DNA from: Candidatus Dojkabacteria bacterium
GTDB lineage: Bacteria > Patescibacteriota > Dojkabacteria > B142 > JAFGMG01
Length of the DNA stretch: 64,000 nt
Reading direction: 5' to 3'
NCBI GenBank assembly: GCA_016927655.1
Contig: JAFGMG010000001.1
Coordinates: 115,599 to 179,598 of the forward strand
This document shows, piece by piece, positions 4,404 through 45,889 of this stretch (the first letter of the stretch is position 1; each line of letters starts with the position of its first letter). The notes below the pieces were generated by a model that was not told the DNA's origin, did no database searches, and saw nothing but the letters and a program-made list of their open reading frames with translations. A program made the position numbers and the translations under genes.

Positions 4404-4501
4404 CTAAAACTAATTAATAAATATTTACTCATTATAAAGAGCCTGCAGTCTTAAGTAAAACAAAATGGACACTAATGAATCGTATTTTGTATAATCATCA
4501 T

Positions 4502-5116
4502 ATGTGCTACAGATACTATATCGGGACGAATTTTTATATTGAAAAAAGGTTTTCTACTGTGCCCTTCGGGCTGGGACTGCAGCCAAATCTCAGTGCTTCC
4601 CCATCTCAGTTCCTGCCGATTATCCGCGAATCTGCAGAAGGCAGAAAAATTTCACTCGCTAAATGGGGACTGATTCCCTCGTGGGCCAAAAACGATGATT
4701 TTGCAAGTAAACTCGCCAATGCGAGATTGGAAAGTATCGAGACCAAACCATCGTTCGCAAGACCGTTTAAATTTAAGCGCTGCATTGTGCCAGTTTCCGG
4801 CTTCTATGAGTGGGAGCACAGGGAAGGAGAAAAGATCAAATACTCAATTGAACCAGAAGATGGAAATGGCTTTGGACTTGCAGGACTATGGGATGAGTGG
4901 ATGCCTCCAAACGGAGATCCAATCATAAGCTATACGATTCTAACCACCAATCCTACCCCTAAAATAAAGAAAATTCACCAGAGAATGCCAGTGATTCTTG
5001 AAAATGACGAGGAAAGTATTTGGCTTGCAGAGGACAGCAAGACAGATTCGCTAAAGCAATTATTTGATCCATATCCGTATAGAAAACTCAAAGTCTTTCA
5101 AACAGAAACCCACTAA
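4502..5116 (+). CDS. SOS response-associated peptidase (SRAP/YedK-type abasic-site processing protein)
   Basis: WGLIPSWAK and FYEW motifs of the SRAP family. The listed ORF starts at 4475, but the family's catalytic Met-Cys N-terminus corresponds to the MC at 4502-4507, so the start is probably 4502. Confidence 0.75.
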   Translation: MCYRYYIGTNFYIEKRFSTVPFGLGLQPNLSASPSQFLPIIRESAEGRKISLAKWGLIPSWAKNDDFASKLANARLESIETKPSFARPFKFKRCIVPVSGFYEWEHREGEKIKYSIEPEDGNGFGLAGLWDEWMPPNGDPIISYTILTTNPTPKIKKIHQRMPVILENDEESIWLAEDSKTDSLKQLFDPYPYRKLKVFQTETH

Positions 5117-5125
5117 ACCAGCAAT

Positions 5126-5749
5126 CTAGTTTTTGACGTCAATCCCGCCAAAAATCATAACCCCTTCTATCAATACAGTCACAGAAGAATCACTGTTTGA
5201 ATCTGTCTTATCCTCAACCCCTCCAAAAAGGGGCAATACGCTGCTTTTTACTTTCCATCCTTTTGGGATAATTATTTCATTACCGCCGAATAAGCTGAAA
5301 GTATCAATGTTTATAGTGTCTCCCGCTGGCTTAGCCTCTCTCAAATCGATATTATTACCCCCGAAAATTGCCGTTAGCGATGCCTTTTTAAAATTCTGTG
5401 ATTTAATTTTTCTCTCATTGCCAAAGAAAAATGCAAAATCATCAAGAGTATCACCTTCGTGGTGTTTCGATATCGGCGTTTTAAAAAGCCCAAAACTTCT
5501 CACCATCAGAATCAGCCCTACTAGAATAATTATCAACGGGAAGAAGTACTGCTCGATATCTGCCTCGAGAATATCTGAAAGAATAAAAAATATCCCCAAG
5601 AATAACAGGATGAATCCGGCAACCGGCTTTCTTTTCGCAAGAAGAAACAGCCCGATTATAAATAGAATCAGGCTCCAGAAACTCCCAAAACCTACCAGCA
5701 AGCTGATTCCAATTGTGATTAGAATAATGCCGCCAAATACATTACTCAT
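5126..5749 (-). CDS. LiaF-like membrane protein (DUF2154-type C-terminal domain)
   Basis: Three to four N-terminal TM helices, then repeated FGG.(N/E) beta-strand motifs (FGGNNIDL, FGGNEIII, FGGVED) typical of the LiaF C-terminal domain. The + ORF 5133..5762 is antisense to it. Confidence 0.45.
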   Translation of the reverse strand: MSNVFGGIILITIGISLLVGFGSFWSLILFIIGLFLLAKRKPVAGFILLFLGIFFILSDILEADIEQYFFPLIIILVGLILMVRSFGLFKTPISKHHEGDTLDDFAFFFGNERKIKSQNFKKASLTAIFGGNNIDLREAKPAGDTINIDTFSLFGGNEIIIPKGWKVKSSVLPLFGGVEDKTDSNSDSSVTVLIEGVMIFGGIDVKN

Positions 5750-5813
5750 ATGTCAAATTTAATAAGTAATTTAGAATATTTCGTTTAGCAGGTTTTATTA
5801 AATGACTAGATAG

Positions 5814-6218
5814 CTATTCGCCAAAATGTTCATCTTCCTCATCTTTAATGGCATCCTCTTTTGTCACATGGACTCTTCCGTCAATATGATTTGCAGGGGC
5901 ATAAACTGTATATAACTTCATTTCCTCAGTTTCTGAAGTATTTACAATATTGTGCTCTATTCCTGCCGGCACTACAATCGCAGAGCCATCTTTCAGTTCG
6001 TTTTCCTCACCATTCAGGACAGACTTCCCTTCTCCTTTGTCAATACGGATAAATTGATCGACTTTGTGATGGACTTCGCTCCCAATGTCTTCACCAGGCT
6101 TTAAAGACATAAGGACTAGCTGCATATGTTTACCTGTATAAAGAACTTTGCGGAAATTTGTATTATTGAGAGTTTCCTCTTCAATGTTGTCTACATAAGC
6201 CACTTTCGACATATTCAT
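5814..6218 (-). CDS. Cupin-domain protein
   Basis: Small beta-barrel protein with cupin-like G(x)5H..H and P.G..H.. pattern (HHKVDQFIRIDKGEG ... VVPAGIEHNIVN). Confidence 0.55.
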   Translation of the reverse strand: MNMSKVAYVDNIEEETLNNTNFRKVLYTGKHMQLVLMSLKPGEDIGSEVHHKVDQFIRIDKGEGKSVLNGEENELKDGSAIVVPAGIEHNIVNTSETEEMKLYTVYAPANHIDGRVHVTKEDAIKDEEDEHFGE

Positions 6219-6259
6219 GAATTACTTAGTAATAAATTAAGCAGTCTATCAAATACATA

Positions 6260-7027
6260 CTATCCTCTCAATGTCCCCGAGAAAACCTGCCATGCCAGGG
6301 CCGACTTGGCAAGCAGACTCAAAACTATATACATTCTTTCTCCAAACAAGTAATTTCTCCAGGGCCCGATTTTTTTGTACTGAAGGAACATATTGATAGC
6401 AAAAATATTGAAAAACAAGAAAAGCGAAATCAAAATTCCATAGACAAAAGTTGGAACTGAGTCTGAATAATTGTTAAGCGCTCCGTAGAAATACATTGCG
6501 ATAACGATCCAAGGAACAATTCCTGCAATGCAGCCAAATACAAAGCTCAGCCAGTTTGTTTTCTTTGTGGTTTGATTGTGCACTTCCATGATAAGCCCAA
6601 AGAAAATCATCATGGCGTTTAAAGTAAATATCAAAATCAAACTTGATAAATCATACATCCCGGAAAGCATAGCAATAATAACAATCATTAAAGAAGAACT
6701 GAAAGCATACTCATACCATCTAAGATAGTTGATTTTCTTTTTAAGATTCTCAACGTACCACTCATAAACAACCGGTAAAGTGAGCAGGAGATGCGCTAGT
6801 GCGGATATAAACAAGAACCCCGCTACTACAGGACCAATTTGAAGAGATGCCACCTCAACCGCATTTGGTGCAACGGAATTTTGGAAAGAATCATAGTCAA
6901 GATAAGAGGTTGTAATCGGCAGACTAAAACCATTACTTAAAACAAGCATTAAAACACCTTGAGCAAAATGTAAAATGGCCATAATGCCATTAAAGATTCT
7001 CAGATTCCGGAATTTCGTTTCGTCCAT
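6260..7027 (-). CDS. Heliorhodopsin (7-TM retinal protein, inverted topology)
   Basis: 255 aa, seven predicted TM helices. Strong similarity to heliorhodopsin hallmark segments: WYEYAFSSSLMIVIIA, FGCIAGIVPW, GERMYIVLSLLAKSALAWQVFSGTL (Lys in last helix = Schiff-base position). Confidence 0.8.
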   Translation of the reverse strand: MDETKFRNLRIFNGIMAILHFAQGVLMLVLSNGFSLPITTSYLDYDSFQNSVAPNAVEVASLQIGPVVAGFLFISALAHLLLTLPVVYEWYVENLKKKINYLRWYEYAFSSSLMIVIIAMLSGMYDLSSLILIFTLNAMMIFFGLIMEVHNQTTKKTNWLSFVFGCIAGIVPWIVIAMYFYGALNNYSDSVPTFVYGILISLFLFFNIFAINMFLQYKKIGPWRNYLFGERMYIVLSLLAKSALAWQVFSGTLRG

Positions 7028-7138: not shown

Positions 7139-7211
7139 GCGCCTGTAGCTCAATGGATAGAGCAACGGTCTTCGGAACCGTAGGTTGGGGGTTCGACTCC
7201 CTTCGGGCGCA
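7139..7211 (+). tRNA. tRNA-Arg (anticodon TCG)
   Basis: Cloverleaf folded by eye: acceptor gcgcctg/cgggcgc, D-arm gctc-aatggata-gagc, anticodon arm acggt-CTTCGGA-accgt, T-loop ttcgact. 73 nt, no encoded CCA. Confidence 0.7.
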
Positions 7212-7347
7212 CATTTTATGATAAAATCGACAGTTTTCCTCCCGGATCAAATGACCAAAAGGAATTTGATCCGAAAAGGAGAAGACCACGGAAGCTAAAA
7301 TAAATGAGTTTACGAATTTATGTAAGCTGAAGTGCGTCTTCGACGCA

Positions 7348-7419
7348 GGGTTCGTAGCTCAATGGTAGAGCAACCGGCTCTTAACCGGTAGGTTGTGGGT
7401 TCGAGTCCCACCGGACTCA
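7348..7419 (+). tRNA. tRNA-Lys (anticodon CTT)
   Basis: Acceptor gggttcg/cggactc, D-arm gctc-aatggta-gagc, anticodon arm accgg-CTCTTAA-ccggt, T-arm gtggg-ttcgagt-cccac. 72 nt. Confidence 0.7.
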
Positions 7420-7435
7420 CGTTTTTTAACTGGGA

Positions 7436-8290
7436 TCAAACTACCTCCGTCTGTATTTGTTCTTGAACAAATTGCAAAGGCGTTTCCTTTTCGATTATTC
7501 TGACAAATTTTGAATCTTTTGAATGAGAAAGAAGATCCTGTAGCAGCTCTTTCCGTTTGATAAACGCTTCTATTTTTCCTTCTTTATACAAAGCCTTGTA
7601 GCTGTCATCCATTACCTCTACAATCGTAACCGCATTTGCATTGTGTCTTTCTACACCGGTTGCAATCACTAAAGAGTACGCATCAGGATCGGTAAATCTA
7701 TCATTGGCAAGAATTATAGAGGCCAGAGCTTCACTTGCATTGGCTTCAACAAATGTTTCTTTATCTATTGGGTTTGCGTATATGAAGTCAACTTCCTTTG
7801 GGAACGGGTTAAAATCCGTATCATTTGAGATCAGTACAATTTTCAGATGTTTCCCAAAATGCTCTCTTAATAATTTAACCACTCCTGCTGTCAGTGATGT
7901 ATAGCCGTAAATTACTACATGGTTGCTGTAGCCGATTCGAATTATTCCCTTTTCTCTTCGATCATATGTAATTCTGATTAGATCTGCGACTTCTGAAATA
8001 ACAATAGCCAGCAGAACCAACCCGGAAGCTATAACCAGAGCACCAAGAATTTTTCCTTCTACTGTGACTGGATACACATCTCCATATCCAAGTCCGGAAA
8101 TTGTCACAATCCACCACCAGAACATCTCTCCAAACGAATCGAACTGGATATTGACATCTCTTTCAACAGCAAAAACAATAAAGGTTATAGACAAAGAAAT
8201 TACGACTGTTATAGATATCCAGGCGAAAGAGTGTTTGATTCTATCTGTAATCTGCCTATTGAAACTGACCTTTTTCATAATTTCATTCAT
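7436..8290 (-). CDS. Potassium channel (2-TM pore with GYGD filter) fused to cytoplasmic RCK/TrkA-like domain
   Basis: TISGLGYGDVYPVT selectivity-filter motif. Two TM helices flank the pore helix. C-terminal Rossmann-like domain. Confidence 0.75.
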   Translation of the reverse strand: MNEIMKKVSFNRQITDRIKHSFAWISITVVISLSITFIVFAVERDVNIQFDSFGEMFWWWIVTISGLGYGDVYPVTVEGKILGALVIASGLVLLAIVISEVADLIRITYDRREKGIIRIGYSNHVVIYGYTSLTAGVVKLLREHFGKHLKIVLISNDTDFNPFPKEVDFIYANPIDKETFVEANASEALASIILANDRFTDPDAYSLVIATGVERHNANAVTIVEVMDDSYKALYKEGKIEAFIKRKELLQDLLSHSKDSKFVRIIEKETPLQFVQEQIQTEVV

Positions 8291-8401
8291 GAGAATACTT
8301 ACTAATAGATGAAAGCAGTATAGCTAAAAGATGAGGGAAAGTTAAGAAGAGAACAAATCTCAATGAGATATAGAATGCCTATTTACGAATAGATAGCTAT
8401 A

Positions 8402-8653
8402 GTGGTAGAATCGAGAAATTTTTATCACAGAATAATGAGTATACAACCTGGACCTGAATGCTCAGCAGTTGGGTGTCCTTTCGAGGGAAATTGTATACTT
8501 GACCCCAAGGTACCAGCACAAATTATTGCGGACATCGCCCGGGAAAATGGGATGCAGGGACAACTTATTAGATGCCCTAGATCTCCGAACTATGATCTCG
8601 AGGGAACCTTAGAAGAAATACGGACCCAAGAAAATGCTCAACAACCAGAATAA
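8402..8653 (+). CDS. Hypothetical small protein (Cys-containing, slightly higher GC)
   Basis: ORF only; no recognisable family. Start may be the internal Met at about 8435. Located between the K+ channel and tRNA-Leu. Confidence 0.25.
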   Translation: MVESRNFYHRIMSIQPGPECSAVGCPFEGNCILDPKVPAQIIADIARENGMQGQLIRCPRSPNYDLEGTLEEIRTQENAQQPE

Positions 8654-8771
8654 ATTACTTGGCAAATTTATTGTTTTGGGTACTGATCCACAACTACTAT
8701 AATAATCTTCTAATTCTAGCTTCTCAGCTAAATGATGTAAATGGTATAATTCTGCTGCTGTTTAACAATAT

Positions 8772-8981: not shown

Positions 8982-9239
8982 ATGTTTGCAGTTTATATAC
9001 TAAAAAGTGAAAAATTTGACCGATATTATATTGGGAGTACAGGAAATATCAAAGATCGTCTGAGAAGGCATAACGAAGGGAGAGAAAAATATACAAAGAA
9101 ATATGCACCTTGGGAACTAAAATATAAAAAATATTTTAATACAAGATCAGAAGCAGTACGATTTGAGAATCATATAAAGGAACAGAAGGATAGAAGTTAC
9201 ATTGAAAACTTAATCTTAGAAGAGAAAGCGGGGTTGTAG
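8982..9239 (+). CDS. Small GIY-YIG nuclease-family protein (YhbQ/UPF0213-like, 85 aa)
   Basis: N-terminal VYILKSEKFDRYYIGSTGNIKDRLRRHNEG = GIY-(x10)-YIG motif with conserved Arg and His/Asn. The stop codon TAG (9237-9239) lies inside tRNA-Asp. Confidence 0.8.
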   Translation: MFAVYILKSEKFDRYYIGSTGNIKDRLRRHNEGREKYTKKYAPWELKYKKYFNTRSEAVRFENHIKEQKDRSYIENLILEEKAGL

Positions 9240-29734: not shown

Positions 29735-31156
29735 TTATTCGAGAATCTCTCCCAGCAGCTCCTTCACCACCAGCGGATCGGCCTGTCCTTTGGTTTCTTT
29801 CATTACCTGGCCGAGTAAGAATTGAGCTGCGTTTGGGTTCTTTTTATAATCATCTACAATTTTTGGATTTGCATCGATTACTTTTTTCACCACTTCTTCA
29901 AGTTCATCACTGTTTTCAATCACTGTCATACTATATTCTTCAACAATATCAATCGGAGATTTTCCGGTTTCAAAGACCTTCGTGAGAACTTCTTTAGCAA
30001 TTGCAGATTTGATTTTACCCTCGTTAAGCAACGAAACAAGTTCTATTAAATGCTCAGGCTTTACTTTCGAATCTTCAAGTTTGACACCATGCGCTTTTGT
30101 CAATCTCCTCAGATCCCCAACCAGCCATTTAGTGGCCTCAACAATCAATTCGTTATTTCCCTTTGCCATTTCATCAAAAAATGCAAGAAGAGATCTATTG
30201 GCAACTAAAACCTCAACAGTGTCAGGATCAAGTTTATATTCGTCCACATAGCGCCATTTTTTCTCTTGAGGAAGCTCCGGAATTTCAGCCTTAATTTTCT
30301 CGATAAGTCCCGAATCAAAAACCATTTTTGGAATGTCCGGCTCGGGAAAATACCTATAATCAGCACTGGTTTCTTTCGTTCTTTGTGAAAGGGTCTCCCC
30401 TGTCATATCCTTAAGACCCCTGGTCTCCTGAGTTAATTTCTCACCCTTTTCCAGAAGTCCTGACTGCCTTTTGATTTCAAATTCAATCACCCTTTTTAGA
30501 ACCGAAATAGAGCCAATATTTTTCACCTCAATTTTGTAATCCGGCAATTCATTTGCATGCTGTGAAAGGCTTATATTTAATTCAAATCTCATCTGGCCTT
30601 TTTCCATATCAGCATCACTTATTCCGCAATATCTGACAATCTGCCTCAGCCTTTTTGCAAAAGCCTCAACCTCTTCGCTTGAAGTAAAATCCGGCTCAGT
30701 TACAATCTCAAGAAGAGGGACACCGGATTTATTGAAATCAAGAAGAGTTTTGTCACCTTGATGTAGAGACTTGCCCGTGTCTTCCTCCGCGTGAACTCTA
30801 GTGATTCTAAATCTTTTTGCATCTCTATCTACATCAGCTTCTACAAATCCGCCCCTGCCGATTGGCTCGTCGTATTGTGATATCTGATAACCTTTTGGAA
30901 GATCAGGATAGAAATAATTTTTACGGTCGAATTTCGATTCTTCTGAAATAGTGCAATTTAGAGCTAGAGCGAGCTTAATGCACTTTTCGATAGCTTCTCT
31001 ATTTGGCACAGGAAGCGCACCTGGCAGTCCAAGGCAAACTGGACATGTATGAGTATTCGGCTTGCTGCCAAAATATGCAGCGTCGCATCCGCAGAACATT
31101 TTTGATTTTGTTTTTGGCTGGAGATGAATCTCCAGCCCTATTATTGGTTGGTACAT
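29735..31156 (-). CDS. gatB: Asp-tRNA(Asn)/Glu-tRNA(Gln) amidotransferase subunit B
   Basis: MYQPIIGLEIHLQ...KMFCGC...NTHTCPVCLGLPGALPV is the canonical GatB N-terminus. Full length 473 aa. Confidence 0.9.
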   Translation of the reverse strand: MYQPIIGLEIHLQPKTKSKMFCGCDAAYFGSKPNTHTCPVCLGLPGALPVPNREAIEKCIKLALALNCTISEESKFDRKNYFYPDLPKGYQISQYDEPIGRGGFVEADVDRDAKRFRITRVHAEEDTGKSLHQGDKTLLDFNKSGVPLLEIVTEPDFTSSEEVEAFAKRLRQIVRYCGISDADMEKGQMRFELNISLSQHANELPDYKIEVKNIGSISVLKRVIEFEIKRQSGLLEKGEKLTQETRGLKDMTGETLSQRTKETSADYRYFPEPDIPKMVFDSGLIEKIKAEIPELPQEKKWRYVDEYKLDPDTVEVLVANRSLLAFFDEMAKGNNELIVEATKWLVGDLRRLTKAHGVKLEDSKVKPEHLIELVSLLNEGKIKSAIAKEVLTKVFETGKSPIDIVEEYSMTVIENSDELEEVVKKVIDANPKIVDDYKKNPNAAQFLLGQVMKETKGQADPLVVKELLGEILE

Positions 31157-31716
31157 TATTTAGTTTTCTTTTTATAACTTTCAGGATTGACATTAAACCC
31201 TAGTTCTTCTTTTGGTGTTTCTTCCTGAATTATTAATCTATTTAACGTTTCATAAACTTCCTTTAATTGCTCGGTATGATCCTTTTGATGTTTTTTGAGC
31301 CCATCCTCGAGCTCTTTAATTTTCTCAAAAATAATTTCATTGGTCTGGACTAAGTATCGCAACTTTGCAAAAGCCCGAACAATCGCGATGTTCATCTTGA
31401 TTGCTCGGTTCGATCTTAGCACACTGGCAAGCATTGCTACCCCAAGCTCTGTAAACACGAATGGAGTATAGCGCCTACCACCATACTCTTCCAGACTTGA
31501 GGTCGCAATTTGCGACCTCAAGTCTGAGAATTCTTTCTGAGTAAGCCTAAACATAAAATCATTCGAGAATCTTTCCTTATTCCTGGAAACCTGTTCATTC
31601 AGTCTTTTGGTAGCTACCCTCCTATACAACTCAGCCACATCAGAGTCCAAAATCACTTTTTGATCTCTTATCCAGAAAATCTTTCGTATTACTTTTTCTT
31701 CTGCAACTATGTCCAT
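31156..31716 (-). CDS. ORF6N-domain protein (phage/antirepressor-associated DNA-binding domain)
   Basis: IRDQKVILDSDVAELY...RLNEQVSRNKERFSNDFMFRLTQKE...RRYTPFVFTELGVAMLASVLRSNRAIKMNIAIVRAF matches the ORF6N consensus closely. Lies between gatA and gatB; its start codon overlaps the gatB start region. Confidence 0.7.
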   Translation of the reverse strand: MDIVAEEKVIRKIFWIRDQKVILDSDVAELYRRVATKRLNEQVSRNKERFSNDFMFRLTQKEFSDLRSQIATSSLEEYGGRRYTPFVFTELGVAMLASVLRSNRAIKMNIAIVRAFAKLRYLVQTNEIIFEKIKELEDGLKKHQKDHTEQLKEVYETLNRLIIQEETPKEELGFNVNPESYKKKTK

Positions 31717-31815: not shown

Positions 31816-33231
31816 CTACTCGCTCAAAATCTCCCAAATTCTCCCAAGTTTCAAAACTCCCAATTCATCCTTCTGTTTCCCGAAAATCTGCATACCGGTT
31901 GGCAGCCCCTTACTATCAAATCCTACTGGCACGCTCAAACAGGGCAGACCGGCTAATGCGCTTGGCTCAGCCAGTTCATCCATCAATTCTCCAAATATCG
32001 GACTTTTTGCAGCATCACCGATTTTTGTCGCATTCATTGGCATGGTAGGGCCTATTATCAAATCAACCTCTTGAAAGACTTGTTTAAAATCTTCGATGAT
32101 TAATGTGCGGACTTGCTGAGCCCTTTTGTAATAAGCATCATAATATCCAGCAGAAAGCGTATAAGCCCCGGTCATACTTCTTTGCTTTGCTTCATTGCCA
32201 AAGCCTTCCTGGCGATTGTATGCTATTTGATCTAGAAAAGTTTCCGCTTGCTCACTAGATCTATGCCCATATCTGATTCCATCGATTCTAGCTAAGTTTG
32301 ACGAGATTTCACTTCTGGAAATGACAGTATAAACAGCAAGCGCATACTTTTGATCAAAAAGGGCTATTTCTTTGACATCAGCACCATTCTTCTTCAGTAA
32401 ATCTATCGCTTCTTGAACTTTATTCCGGACTTCAGAATCAATTCGCTCGTCCATAAAATTCTTTGGGACACCCAATTTCAGCCCCCCCAAGTCTTCAAGT
32501 TTAAAGGAATTTATGGCTTCGACCAGTTTCATTGCTGGTTCATCAATTGATGTAGCGTCTTTCGGATCATGACCCGACAGGATTTCAGTAAGTATCGCAA
32601 TATCTTCAATAGAATTTGCCAAAATCCCGGGACGATCCAGAGACGACCCCATAGCAATCAAACCATAACGGCTGAATCTGCCATAAGTCGGGGCAAAACC
32701 ATACACGCCGCACCATGCAGCCGGACCCCTTACTGATCCTGCTGTCTCAGAACCAATCGAATAAACACTCATTCCAGTAGCAACAGCCGCAGCAGCACCG
32801 CCGCTTGAACCGCCGGCTACATGTTTTTTATTATAAGGATTGAGAGTTGTAAAAAAATCAGATTTCTCTGTGCTGCTCCCATGTGCAAACGCGTCCATGT
32901 TGGTTTTGCCCATGAAAAATGCACCTGCAGCCAGCAATCTTTCAGTAACAGTCGCATTATAAGGGGAAGTATAATTTTTCAAAATATTCGAACTGGCTGT
33001 AGTTTTAGTTCCTTTCCAGTTAAAATTATCCTTAAGAGATGCAGGTATCCCCGCTAGCTGCCTATCTCCAGACTGCTGAGCTTTCTCATCAGTTCTGCTT
33101 ACAAAAACATGCAATTTTGGATCGAGTTCCTCGATTGTTTTCCTAGTTTCAGAAATTAATTCTTCATAGGAATATTTCCCGCTATCTATGTCTTTTTTTA
33201 TTTGTGTGATGGTTAATCCTTTGAGATTCAT
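31816..33231 (-). CDS. gatA: Glu/Asp-tRNA amidotransferase subunit A (amidase signature family)
   Basis: Amidase signature GGSSGGAAAAVATGMSVYSIGSETAGSVRGPAAWCGVYGF with catalytic Ser-cisSer-Lys context. Confidence 0.9.
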   Translation of the reverse strand: MNLKGLTITQIKKDIDSGKYSYEELISETRKTIEELDPKLHVFVSRTDEKAQQSGDRQLAGIPASLKDNFNWKGTKTTASSNILKNYTSPYNATVTERLLAAGAFFMGKTNMDAFAHGSSTEKSDFFTTLNPYNKKHVAGGSSGGAAAAVATGMSVYSIGSETAGSVRGPAAWCGVYGFAPTYGRFSRYGLIAMGSSLDRPGILANSIEDIAILTEILSGHDPKDATSIDEPAMKLVEAINSFKLEDLGGLKLGVPKNFMDERIDSEVRNKVQEAIDLLKKNGADVKEIALFDQKYALAVYTVISRSEISSNLARIDGIRYGHRSSEQAETFLDQIAYNRQEGFGNEAKQRSMTGAYTLSAGYYDAYYKRAQQVRTLIIEDFKQVFQEVDLIIGPTMPMNATKIGDAAKSPIFGELMDELAEPSALAGLPCLSVPVGFDSKGLPTGMQIFGKQKDELGVLKLGRIWEILSE

Positions 33232-39941: not shown

Positions 39942-40334
39942 TTAATTATCTTTCGAGACCATTTCTACAACCTTGCTCAGGTCGATATCTGATTTGACTA
40001 TATAATCAGATGCCCCAAGTTTTTTGGCCTTTTCTACATCCGAAGGCTGCGATAGATTTGTAAGGACAATTACTTTTGTTTTATTGTTCTCTTTTTTCAT
40101 CCATTCAAGCACATCAAACCCATTCATTTCAGGCATTATCAAATCCAACAGGATCAAATCGTACTTCCCCTGTGCCAGTAAATCGGTGGCAATCTTCCCA
40201 TTTTCCGCAACAGTCACATCAAATCCTTCAGCGTCCAACTTGATCTTTAGAACTTCAGAGATCGGCTTATCATCTTCAACAATCATCACTTTCTTTGCTG
40301 TACTCGTTGTTTTTGCTGTTTTTACTGTTGCCAT
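39942..40334 (-). CDS. Stand-alone response-regulator receiver (CheY-like) protein
   Basis: MIVEDD...DLILLDLIMPEMNGFDVL...VIVLTN...K receiver-domain motifs (DD, phospho-acceptor D, T, K). Confidence 0.85.
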   Translation of the reverse strand: MATVKTAKTTSTAKKVMIVEDDKPISEVLKIKLDAEGFDVTVAENGKIATDLLAQGKYDLILLDLIMPEMNGFDVLEWMKKENNKTKVIVLTNLSQPSDVEKAKKLGASDYIVKSDIDLSKVVEMVSKDN

Positions 40335-43906: not shown

Positions 43907-45889
43907 ATGCTAGATTTCAGCAGAGAAAAGACACCCGCTAAATCTCTTCCTGTGAAGACCAACCCAGAGAGCGGGATTTATCAAAATAACCCAACATTAC
44001 CGATTGGCAATGTTTGTAAAGTAACTAAAACAGATATCCCTTCCAACAAATTAAAAAGCAGGCAGACAAGAATATACTGGTATAATCAACACATGGCATA
44101 CAGAACATTTGATCCGACAAAATACGAACGGGAACTACTAGGAATTTTCCAAGAAGTCCTGCAGGCTAAGAAGCTAAATCAAAGCAGGCTGCGCAAAATT
44201 CTTCACAAATATCCACGAGATGGCAACAAAATATTTTCCAAGGACCAGCTCGTTCAAGGATTTCAGTACCTTAAATCAAATAAGAAGAATTTTGCGCAAA
44301 AAGAACTTCCGGAATATCTAAAAAAGCGTCCCGTTAGAACAATTTCCGGAGTCACAACGGTCACAGTTCTTACCAAGCCATTCCCCTGCCCCGGCAGGTG
44401 CATTTTCTGTCCAAATGATATCACTATGCCAAAAAGCTACATTGCCAGTGAGCCCGGAGCACAAAGAGCTATCGCAAATAGATTTGATCCTTTTAAACAA
44501 GTTTACAACAGGCTCAAAGCATTACATCAGATAGGACACCCAACAGAAAAAATCGAACTTCTGGTTCTGGGCGGGACCTGGAGCTATTATCCAGAAAGCT
44601 ATCAGATTTGGTTTATCAAAAGATGCTTCGAGGGATTGAATGCTTTTGATCCTTTAGATTTAAAAGAATTCCCCCGACAGGAAATCGAATTTTCACCCAA
44701 TAATTTCAATAACAAAATAAGAAAACAAACCGGAAAAAAGACCTACAATGAGTTAATTAATACAAAAGAATACAAAGATAATTTCGCGAAAGAATTTGAA
44801 ACTAGTTTGCAGAAATCCACATGGGAAGAATTGTTTAAAGAGCATAAAATCAATGAAACTGCACACGCTAGAAACGTTGGATTAGTCCTTGAGACTAGAC
44901 CTGATACGATAGATACAAAAGAAGTTTTGAAGCTCCGCAGATTTGGAGCTACAAAAATTCAAATCGGTGTGCAAACACTTGATCCAATCGTCAATAAAGC
45001 AAACAAGCGATTTGAAACAATAGAGCAGATACGAAACGCTTTTAGTCTTCTGCGGCAAGCAGGTTTCAAGATCCACGCCCATATGATGCCAAATCTTTAC
45101 AAATCAACGCCCTTAAAGGATCTAAAAACATACAAAGACTTATTTAATCAGCTGGACTTCAAACCAGACGAGCTGAAAATATATCCGACATCAATAATTC
45201 CACACACCGAACTTGCCAGACTTCAGGAACAGGGGAAATACGAACCTTATAGTCCGCAGACCCTATCAAACCTGCTTGCCGACATGATTGAAACAACTCC
45301 AAGATACTGCCGTCTCAGCAGAATTGTCCGCGATATTCCTTCAGGAGAAATTGTGACAGGGAACAAAATTACAAATCTCAGGCAGCTTATTGAAGCCAGA
45401 CTGGAAACCGAACTTCGTAAAAACGAAAATATCAGGGCCAGGGAGATCAAAAACATTAAATTTGACAAAGAACAAGCGATATTTAAATCAACTAACTACA
45501 AGACAAACACCTCAATAGAATATTTTCTTGAATATGTGAGTAAAGATGACAAACTTCTTGGGTTTTTAAGACTTTCACTTCCTAATTCAAAAACTAATCC
45601 AATAACAAACGAGCTAAATAACTCCGCAATTATTCGAGAAGTTCATATATATGGGCCGGCGCAAAATATCCGGGGAAGCAAATCAAAAAAAATTATTCCT
45701 ACTAAAAGCAAAGCGCAGCATATTGGATTTGGCACAAAGTTACTCCAAAAAGCGATATCAATTTCAAAAGAAATGGGATTTGACTACCTTAGCGTAATTT
45801 CTGCAATAGGCACAAGAGAATATTACAGGAAAAGAGGATTTAGAGACGGGAGGCTGTACCAGAAGACAAAAACTCATCTCTCAAGCTGA
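43907..45889 (+). CDS. Elp3-like radical SAM / GNAT acetyltransferase (tRNA U34 carboxymethyl-uridine synthase family)
   Basis: CPGRCIFCP radical-SAM cysteine triad. Central TIM-barrel-like region. C-terminal GNAT domain (HIGFGTKLLQKAISISKEMGFDYLSV). The ORF has about 60 extra N-terminal residues, so the true start may be an internal Met (about 44087). Confidence 0.75.
   Translation: MLDFSREKTPAKSLPVKTNPESGIYQNNPTLPIGNVCKVTKTDIPSNKLKSRQTRIYWYNQHMAYRTFDPTKYERELLGIFQEVLQAKKLNQSRLRKILHKYPRDGNKIFSKDQLVQGFQYLKSNKKNFAQKELPEYLKKRPVRTISGVTTVTVLTKPFPCPGRCIFCPNDITMPKSYIASEPGAQRAIANRFDPFKQVYNRLKALHQIGHPTEKIELLVLGGTWSYYPESYQIWFIKRCFEGLNAFDPLDLKEFPRQEIEFSPNNFNNKIRKQTGKKTYNELINTKEYKDNFAKEFETSLQKSTWEELFKEHKINETAHARNVGLVLETRPDTIDTKEVLKLRRFGATKIQIGVQTLDPIVNKANKRFETIEQIRNAFSLLRQAGFKIHAHMMPNLYKSTPLKDLKTYKDLFNQLDFKPDELKIYPTSIIPHTELARLQEQGKYEPYSPQTLSNLLADMIETTPRYCRLSRIVRDIPSGEIVTGNKITNLRQLIEARLETELRKNENIRAREIKNIKFDKEQAIFKSTNYKTNTSIEYFLEYVSKDDKLLGFLRLSLPNSKTNPITNELNNSAIIREVHIYGPAQNIRGSKSKKIIPTKSKAQHIGFGTKLLQKAISISKEMGFDYLSVISAIGTREYYRKRGFRDGRLYQKTKTHLSS

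Follow-up and report, generated by a model that had tools for sequence, protein, structure and literature searches.

The 64-kb stretch of Candidatus Dojkabacteria DNA analyzed here (referred to below as the window) carries a heliorhodopsin (HeR) gene on its minus strand, at positions 6260..7027. Its product is very probably a functional, vertically inherited member of the TaHeR-like subfamily, which by analogy with its homologs would act as a retinal-binding, slow-cycling, non-pumping photosensor or regulator, with a gene context that mainly reflects shared ancestry. The open reading frame (ORF) begins with ATG and encodes 255 amino acids; its translation contains the peptide LSLLAKSALAWQVFSGTL given in the preliminary description of this DNA, and its C-terminal end is IVLSLLAKSALAWQVFSGTLRG, the peptide quoted there. 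The protein matches the Pfam family Heliorhodopsin (PF18761) over the full length of the model (positions 1 to 242 of 242; E = 3.3e-101; 338.1 bits against a gathering cutoff of 26.7). It also scores 356.7 bits (cutoff, 100) with the NCBIfam equivalog NF038020 ("heliorhodopsin HeR"). These scores, both far above their cutoffs, bear out the identity first proposed. Its sole other Pfam match, ABA_GPCR, stays under its cutoff at 20.3 bits, and no match to type-1 rhodopsins (Bac_rhodopsin) is found in the Pfam scan at E ≤ 0.01. Among solved structures, the best match is TaHeR (6IS6/7U55; E = 1.9e-87; query residues 2 to 254 on chain residues 11 to 257), followed by 48C12 (E ~5e-62). The product is confirmed as a genuine heliorhodopsin, a chance match being out of the question.

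A three-way alignment of the query with 48C12 and TaHeR, in which it is 59.5% identical to TaHeR and 48.6% identical to 48C12, shows that every residue checked from the heliorhodopsin literature is intact. The Schiff-base lysine that the preliminary description had placed in transmembrane helix 7 (TM7) is K241, aligned with K241 of 48C12 and K238 of TaHeR, and it closes the motif S237-L-L-A-K241, in which the serine of the SxxxK signature corresponds to S237 and S234, respectively. The counterion, a glutamate in TM3, is E106 (E107 in 48C12 and E108 in TaHeR), and the histidine pair is H20 and H79 (H23 and H80 in 48C12; H23 and H82 in TaHeR). Q23, S75, W104, Y107, N100, and E148 are likewise found. 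The hidden Markov model search and the alignment to 48C12 and TaHeR, both named as checks in that description, confirm the key E, H, and K residues; the TM7 lysine is present, and the best match is neither a type-1 rhodopsin nor a nonrhodopsin protein with seven transmembrane helices. In an alignment with 77 relatives, nine of the 10 positions checked are invariant, among them K241, E106, H20, H79, Q23, S75, S237, and E148, and the tenth, W104, is either W or F. The six residues that line the lateral fenestration in 48C12 numbering (F162, C166, G169, F206, N207, and A210), as given in a 2025 preprint (10.1101/2025.11.27.691015), are all the same in the query and 48C12.

The distribution of charged residues and the pattern of substitution are both informative about the state of this gene. 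Lysines and arginines number 11 in the N terminus and the TM2-3, TM4-5, and TM6-7 loops versus 1 on the opposite face, which by the positive-inside rule predicts an inverted topology with the N terminus in the cytoplasm, in agreement with the end-to-end alignment to TaHeR. Compared with the two closest lineages, nonsynonymous divergence is 0.11 to 0.16 while synonymous sites are saturated (pS of 0.74 to 0.82), giving a dN/dS ratio of ~0.05 or lower. Such a low ratio points to strong purifying selection, so that, judged from its divergence, the gene is under constraint and not a relic.

A mechanism can be proposed by analogy with the characterized homologs. With its N terminus lying in the cytoplasm after insertion, the protein would attach all-trans retinal to K241 through a protonated Schiff base whose only counterion would be E106; this chromophore would most likely be external in origin and pass in by way of the lateral fenestration, which is conserved. 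Light would then cause isomerization and start a slow photocycle in which the O state is long-lived and there is no net movement of ions; published work, as quoted, describes 48C12 and TaHeR as transporting no ions and as having an O state that lasts for seconds. HeRs have been found to bind and regulate glutamine synthetase, a photolyase, and an ABC transporter (PMC9529153, PMC9769723, PMC11109279). Because these three experimental systems behave in this way, the output of the query HeR would probably be a light-dependent protein interaction, making it a photosensor or a light-dependent regulator of a partner protein.

How would this bacterium obtain its retinal? No domains of Blh/BCD, phytoene synthase, phytoene desaturase, or lycopene cyclase were detected by Pfam among the ~60 ORFs across the window, and no carotenoid or retinal genes were found in the ~5 kb beyond its start (locus L081; loci in related genomes are likewise given L numbers). 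TaHeR rapidly binds exogenous all-trans retinal via an opening in its apoprotein, and rhodopsin-bearing Saccharibacteria lack blh (PMC9296517), so that on the published evidence scavenging is what one would expect by default. The conservation of the fenestration residues makes scavenging of retinal by the Dojkabacteria host plausible. The earlier remark that no blh or crt genes occur in the window therefore stands, and its corollary, that retinal is scavenged, goes as far as being consistent with the window and with the publications on TaHeR and the rhodopsins of the candidate phyla radiation (CPR).

Several points weigh against the reading of the protein as a retinal-binding sensor that scavenges its chromophore. 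Its retinal binding, spectrum, and photocycle are predicted by extension from homologs that are 49 to 60% identical. Glutamine synthetase, photolyase, ABC transporter, DUF2177, short-chain dehydrogenase (SDR), glutaredoxin, and the other published partner families are not adjacent to the gene. The scan for carotenoid and retinal genes covered 64 kb plus ~5 kb of a genome of probably ~1.2 Mb, so synthesis genes may lie elsewhere. This size is taken from two related single-chromosome metagenome-assembled genomes (MAGs), one labeled Dojkabacteria and the other Saccharibacteria, which measure 1.17 to 1.19 Mb; together with the Candidatus Dojkabacteria record, they agree with the initial view of a small-genome bacterium. 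Finally, the 2025 preprint (10.1101/2025.11.27.691015) argues that HeRs are two-antenna light harvesters and not sensors. An alternative along these lines is that the query is primarily a light harvester or transporter and not a sensor, either holding an exogenous xanthophyll antenna at the fenestration, as the preprint proposes for HeRs generally, or conducting protons as viral HeRs are reported to do in the work quoted. The fenestration and proposed carotenoid-site residues are indeed conserved in the query, but the antenna idea is based on docking and structural analogy and comes without a specified energy-conserving output, and no transport was measured, as quoted, for 48C12, Cv06, or TaHeR, the last being closest to the query. 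We thus regard this alternative as very unlikely.

The query falls in a clade dominated by Dojkabacteria. In a neighbor-joining tree, the query and its 78 to 83% identical relatives adjoin a clade of Dojkabacteria MAGs and Saccharibacteria-labeled MAGs; this clade sits within a large TaHeR-like group that includes Chloroflexota, Thermoplasmatota, Paceibacteria, and Actinomycetota, and 48C12 is the outgroup to the entire TaHeR-like set. The window is otherwise bacterial and CPR-like, with a G+C content of ~39% and genes for ribosomal protein L19, RecX, RecJ, GatA/GatB, SHMT, a type IV pilus cluster, and many glycosyltransferases. NCBI already lists the identical 255-amino-acid protein, under the name "heliorhodopsin HeR [Candidatus Dojkabacteria bacterium]," from a 255,869-bp contig; the cupin and K+ channel discussed below are recorded there from the same contig. 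A CPR survey published in 2022 (Chiriac et al., Microbiome, PMC9166423) counted 98 HeRs (115 rhodopsins less 17 predicted proton pumps), put "7 in Dojkabacteria" among these, and examined TM7 for the SxxxK motif. The finding is already known, therefore, both as a sequence record and as biology.

Two observations on the wider distribution of HeRs emerged from the same comparisons. Many third-party annotation (TPA) MAGs titled "uncultured Candidatus Saccharibacteria bacterium" (L002, L004 to L006, L008, L010, and others) group with Dojkabacteria in the HeR tree, and L002 additionally has the channel/tRNA/PMT_2 synteny of the window; the Saccharibacteria label on these MAGs probably serves as a placeholder rather than as a real assignment. 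HeRs at 54% identity are also encoded in two MAGs of Kosmotogaceae (Thermotogota), at 8001-8753 in both L064 and L071. Members of this family have an outer envelope of the toga type, a feature relevant to the rule, stated in the preliminary description, that HeRs are restricted to monoderms.

The neighbors of the HeR gene are present as first described, namely a cupin, a LiaF-TM protein, and a GYGD channel, with two tRNA genes between the channel and HeR. The cupin gene (5814..6218, minus strand) lies 41 bp downstream of HeR in the same direction and encodes a small single-domain Cupin_2 protein of 134 amino acids (Pfam E = 2.5e-15). It is followed after 64 bp by a gene for a LiaF-TM-domain membrane protein of 207 amino acids (5126..5749, minus strand; Pfam LiaF-TM, 30.6 bits against a cutoff of 27), co-directional with both HeR and cupin. 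On the other side, tRNA-Arg (TCG; 7139..7212) and tRNA-Lys (CTT; 7348..7420), both on the plus strand, separate HeR from a K+-channel-type protein of 284 amino acids (7436..8290, minus strand), whose two-TM pore bears the motif GLGYGD and precedes a C-terminal RCK/TrkA_N domain (Ion_trans_2, E = 7.8e-12 and 45.4 bits; TrkA_N, 26.5 bits against 23.8). GYGD pore and RCK/TrkA_N domain together make up the architecture of an RCK-gated two-TM K+ channel (MthK/Kch-like), while NCBIfam channel equivalogs score far under their cutoffs, and for this protein the architecture alone is established.

None of the published HeR-neighbor families is adjacent to HeR on the same strand in the window, whether glutamine synthetase, an NAD+ synthetase, a photolyase, MerR, TerC, and ABC transporter or SDR, alpha/beta hydrolase, DUF2177, DUF2238, and glutaredoxin/GSHPx/glyoxalase, and none of the 10 frequent HeR-neighbor groups of PMC11109279 is adjacent there. 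A consensus scan for operon signals predicts no intergenic terminator in the 41-bp HeR-cupin gap or the 64-bp cupin-LiaF-like gap and picks up a weak promoter-like site with an extended -10 directly upstream of the cupin gene within the 3' end of HeR. The scan is uninformative overall, and co-transcription of HeR, cupin, and the LiaF-like gene is possible.

To what extent is this arrangement conserved? With 16 window proteins as tblastn queries, we examined 80 HeR loci, each from a species representative and extending up to 8 kb to either side of the gene. The closest relatives (L082 to L086) are not part of this set and were retrieved via exact-protein look-up. A cupin homolog occurs near HeR at none of the 80 loci, which include ~20 other Dojkabacteria or Patescibacteria loci; the LiaF-like gene has a homolog near HeR at a single one (L005, ~3 kb off and on the opposite strand), as does the channel (L002, adjacent to HeR). 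These counts rule out a family-wide conserved neighborhood. Profile models built from clade members, which might have recovered diverged cupin or LiaF homologs overlooked by BLAST, gave nothing more, and no cupin or LiaF domains were found by Pfam in the small co-directional ORFs downstream of HeR at other Dojkabacteria loci. Nor did a universal HeR neighbor emerge from all-versus-all clustering of 1,183 flanking ORFs, which yielded lineage-specific blocks only (e.g., in Paceibacteria, Thermoplasmatota, and Anaerolineae). At some other Dojkabacteria loci, HeR has neighbors from published families: DUF2177 lies directly upstream of it in L053 (1602-2012), the same DUF2177 cluster is upstream in L051 (14-424), and a short-chain dehydrogenase is found 17 bp upstream in L006 (1510-2415).

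Within the closest relatives, the order of channel, tRNA pair, HeR, and cupin is kept in L084 to L086 (HeR 83% identical) and in L082 (78%). L083 (84%) retains the channel and has two genes inserted between channel and HeR, after which the contig ends. The tRNA-Arg(TCG)/tRNA-Lys(CTT) pair is inverted in L082 (5334-5694) and L083 (4089-4381) relative to the window (7139-7420), L084 (2029-2349), and L002 (6429-6778), a difference that looks like a small local inversion at the tRNA locus.

The cupin is the sole neighbor whose direct adjacency to HeR is kept in the closest relatives, with a spacing of 38 to 73 bp, and this raises the idea of a co-transcribed, light-responsive module in which photoactivated HeR would bind and modulate a cytoplasmic cupin that senses small molecules or acts as an enzyme. 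Both genes point the same way across a gap without a terminator-like site, their adjacency persists in three lineages with saturated synonymous sites while the genes further downstream differ, and the experimentally supported HeR partners are also encoded by adjacent genes (PMC9529153, PMC11109279). However, the adjacency is confined to one narrow clade in which HeR identity is at least 78%, and the promoter-like site with its extended -10 lies in the 3' end of HeR, just ahead of the cupin gene. The cupin family itself comprises thousands of homologs at 65 to 73% identity across Patescibacteria (Yanofskybacteria, Paceibacterota, and other Dojkabacteria). In four other lineages its neighbors are alanine racemase/MurB, an M16 peptidase/acyltransferase, a BipA-type GTPase, and glycosyltransferases, and HeR is adjacent in none of the four, which suggests a cupin function independent of HeR. 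In L092, the cupin has a truncated gene upstream of it that was considered as a HeR and found not to be one. Furthermore, cupins, as well as K+ channels and LiaF, are not among the families listed in the two published surveys of HeR neighborhoods (PMC8612252, PMC11109279). A HeR-cupin module is accordingly unlikely, and the cupin gives little clue from context to what HeR does, although on comparative grounds it is the only partner candidate with any support. If such a module were real, HeR in one Dojkabacteria sub-clade would have acquired a small metal-type cupin as a partner, adding a new class to the few HeR effectors.

The K+ channel is the nearest upstream protein gene of HeR on the same strand, and the two lie close together in L082, L084, L085, and L002 as well, the lowest HeR identity among these being 69%, so it could be imagined that HeR regulates this RCK-domain channel and couples light to membrane potential or K+ flux. 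Against this stand the two opposite-strand tRNA genes, which place channel and HeR in separate transcription units, as well as the two further genes that lie between them in L083 and the absence of the channel from 79 of the 80 HeR loci. In L002, the GYGD filter is degenerate despite an intact HeR. The channel family is small and lineage restricted (46 proteins at E ≤ 1e-20), and four of its loci at 56 to 69% identity have no HeR within 5 kb. In two of these loci, L095 and L098, parts of the PMT_2/GT2/572-amino-acid-protein backbone known from the window remain on the channel's other side, indicating that the channel belongs to this glycosyltransferase-side synteny block, which as judged from gene order persists in loci without HeR. 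Light regulation of the channel is therefore highly improbable, and the channel gives little clue to HeR function. The selectivity filter of the window's channel reads S-G-L-G-Y-G-D, with Gly at the Thr position of canonical T-V-G-Y-G-D channels, and the L002 ortholog (5575-6426), 68% identical in the remainder, has the motif T-G-I-G-G-T-Y-D and has lost GYGD; the ion selectivity of the channel may be unusual.

The preliminary description had also suggested that HeR and the LiaF-like protein form a module for sensing light or envelope stress. The LiaF-TM domain does score above its threshold, and the gene lies on the HeR strand with short gaps and no predicted terminator, but the term "LiaF-like envelope-stress module" is overstated. 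The match to the LiaF-like_C domain is under its cutoff (22.3 bits against 29), no NCBIfam model matches the protein, and no LiaS histidine kinase or LiaR response regulator was found by Pfam beside the gene, whose flanks are the cupin gene and an SRAP peptidase gene; the sole response regulator found in the window (39942-40334) lies beside type IV pilus genes. In L082 and L084, moreover, the cupin gene is followed by one for another multi-pass membrane protein, which has no Pfam domain and does not align with the LiaF-like protein. A profile built across the proteins of the window, L082, and L084 sets the LiaF-like protein apart (97 bits versus >320 bits) and finds no further members, and the only other locus with a LiaF-like homologue is L005, mentioned above. 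At its position, the LiaF-like gene is specific to the window genome and probably not part of a HeR unit, and it too gives little clue from context. The proposed module is largely refuted by this missing conservation, and we give it almost no probability. A shadow ORF of 209 amino acids (5133-5762, plus strand) runs antisense to the LiaF-like gene along its full length and exceeds it by two codons; the Pfam match and the public gene call favor the minus-strand gene.

The simplest reading of these comparisons is that HeR and cupin occupy the margin of a synteny block, conserved and rich in tRNA genes, within one Dojkabacteria sub-clade, an arrangement that would owe more to descent than to function. 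The neighborhood appears to reflect mainly shared ancestry within a narrow clade and not a functional module, and the partner of the HeR photosensor does not seem identifiable from gene context. Hence, comparison does not support the suggestion that the cupin, LiaF-like, and channel genes could frame a role in sensing or in the envelope. Genes related to DNA damage recur near HeR in this clade: the SRAP peptidase (4475-5116 of the window) is three genes from HeR, and a uracil-DNA glycosylase homolog lies ~7 kb from HeR in the window's genome (L081, 7898-8560) and ~2 kb from it in L082 (8779-9441), which is probably residual synteny.

Other features of the window deserve mention. A stand-alone GIY-YIG domain ORF of 85 amino acids (8982-9239, plus strand) lies between tRNA-Leu(GAG) and tRNA-Asp(GTC), its end overlapping the start of tRNA-Asp by 10 nucleotides; in L083, the two tRNA genes are 157 bp apart, leaving no room for this ORF. 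A gene with an ORF6N domain, a family typical of phage antirepressor-like proteins (31156-31716, minus strand), interrupts the usual gatA-gatB pair and is flanked by gatB (29735-31156) and a gatA-type amidase gene (31816-33231). A 660-amino-acid protein (43907-45889, plus strand) combines Radical_SAM and Radical_SAM_C in its C-terminal two-thirds with ~290 N-terminal residues that have no assigned domain, a domain pair that we presume to recall Elp3-like enzymes.

As one more recognizable HeR in a lineage already catalogued, with a protein already named in NCBI, this gene matters little by itself. The negative outcome of the neighborhood comparison is useful, since an argument from the cupin, LiaF-like, and K+ channel genes for an envelope-stress or ion-channel-linked role of HeR is unsound because the neighborhood fails comparison beyond a narrow clade. 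The gene is also a further instance in which a CPR bacterium has an intact retinal protein under strong constraint and shows no visible retinal route in the scanned DNA, which fits the published idea that episymbionts rely on neighbors or hosts for the chromophore.

Among characterized systems, the pairs AbHeR-glutamine synthetase, TfHeR-photolyase, and OcHeR-OmrDE ABC transporter involve the same photoreceptor family, and the mode of action suggested for the query is borrowed from them, although none of the partner genes in their operons is adjacent to the query HeR in the window. The founding member, 48C12 (PDB 6SU3, 6UH3, and 9LJJ), is the more distant of the two structural references at 48.6% identity; the number K241 is shared, query E106 corresponds to E107, Q213 of 48C12 is replaced by Met, and its W146 and W163 are replaced by Leu and Val, respectively. 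TaHeR, from the Thermoplasmatales archaeon SG8-52-1 (PDB 6IS6, 7U55, and 7CLJ), has the same Schiff-base Lys, Glu counterion, His pair, M213-type residue (M210 in its own numbering), and fenestration as the query. Unlike TaHeR, whose host is an archaeon, the query comes from a bacterium, and it differs further by five inserted residues (NNYSD) in the loop between TM5 and TM6, by F162 in place of Y164, and by S111, N137, and F203, which match 48C12 and not TaHeR. The HeRs of CPR bacteria, including Dojkabacteria, reported by Chiriac et al. (PMC9166423) belong to the same family and the same class of host as the query, whose TM7 sequence SLLAK is a conservative variant of SLVAK, SLIAK, and SFVAK, the commonest forms in that survey.

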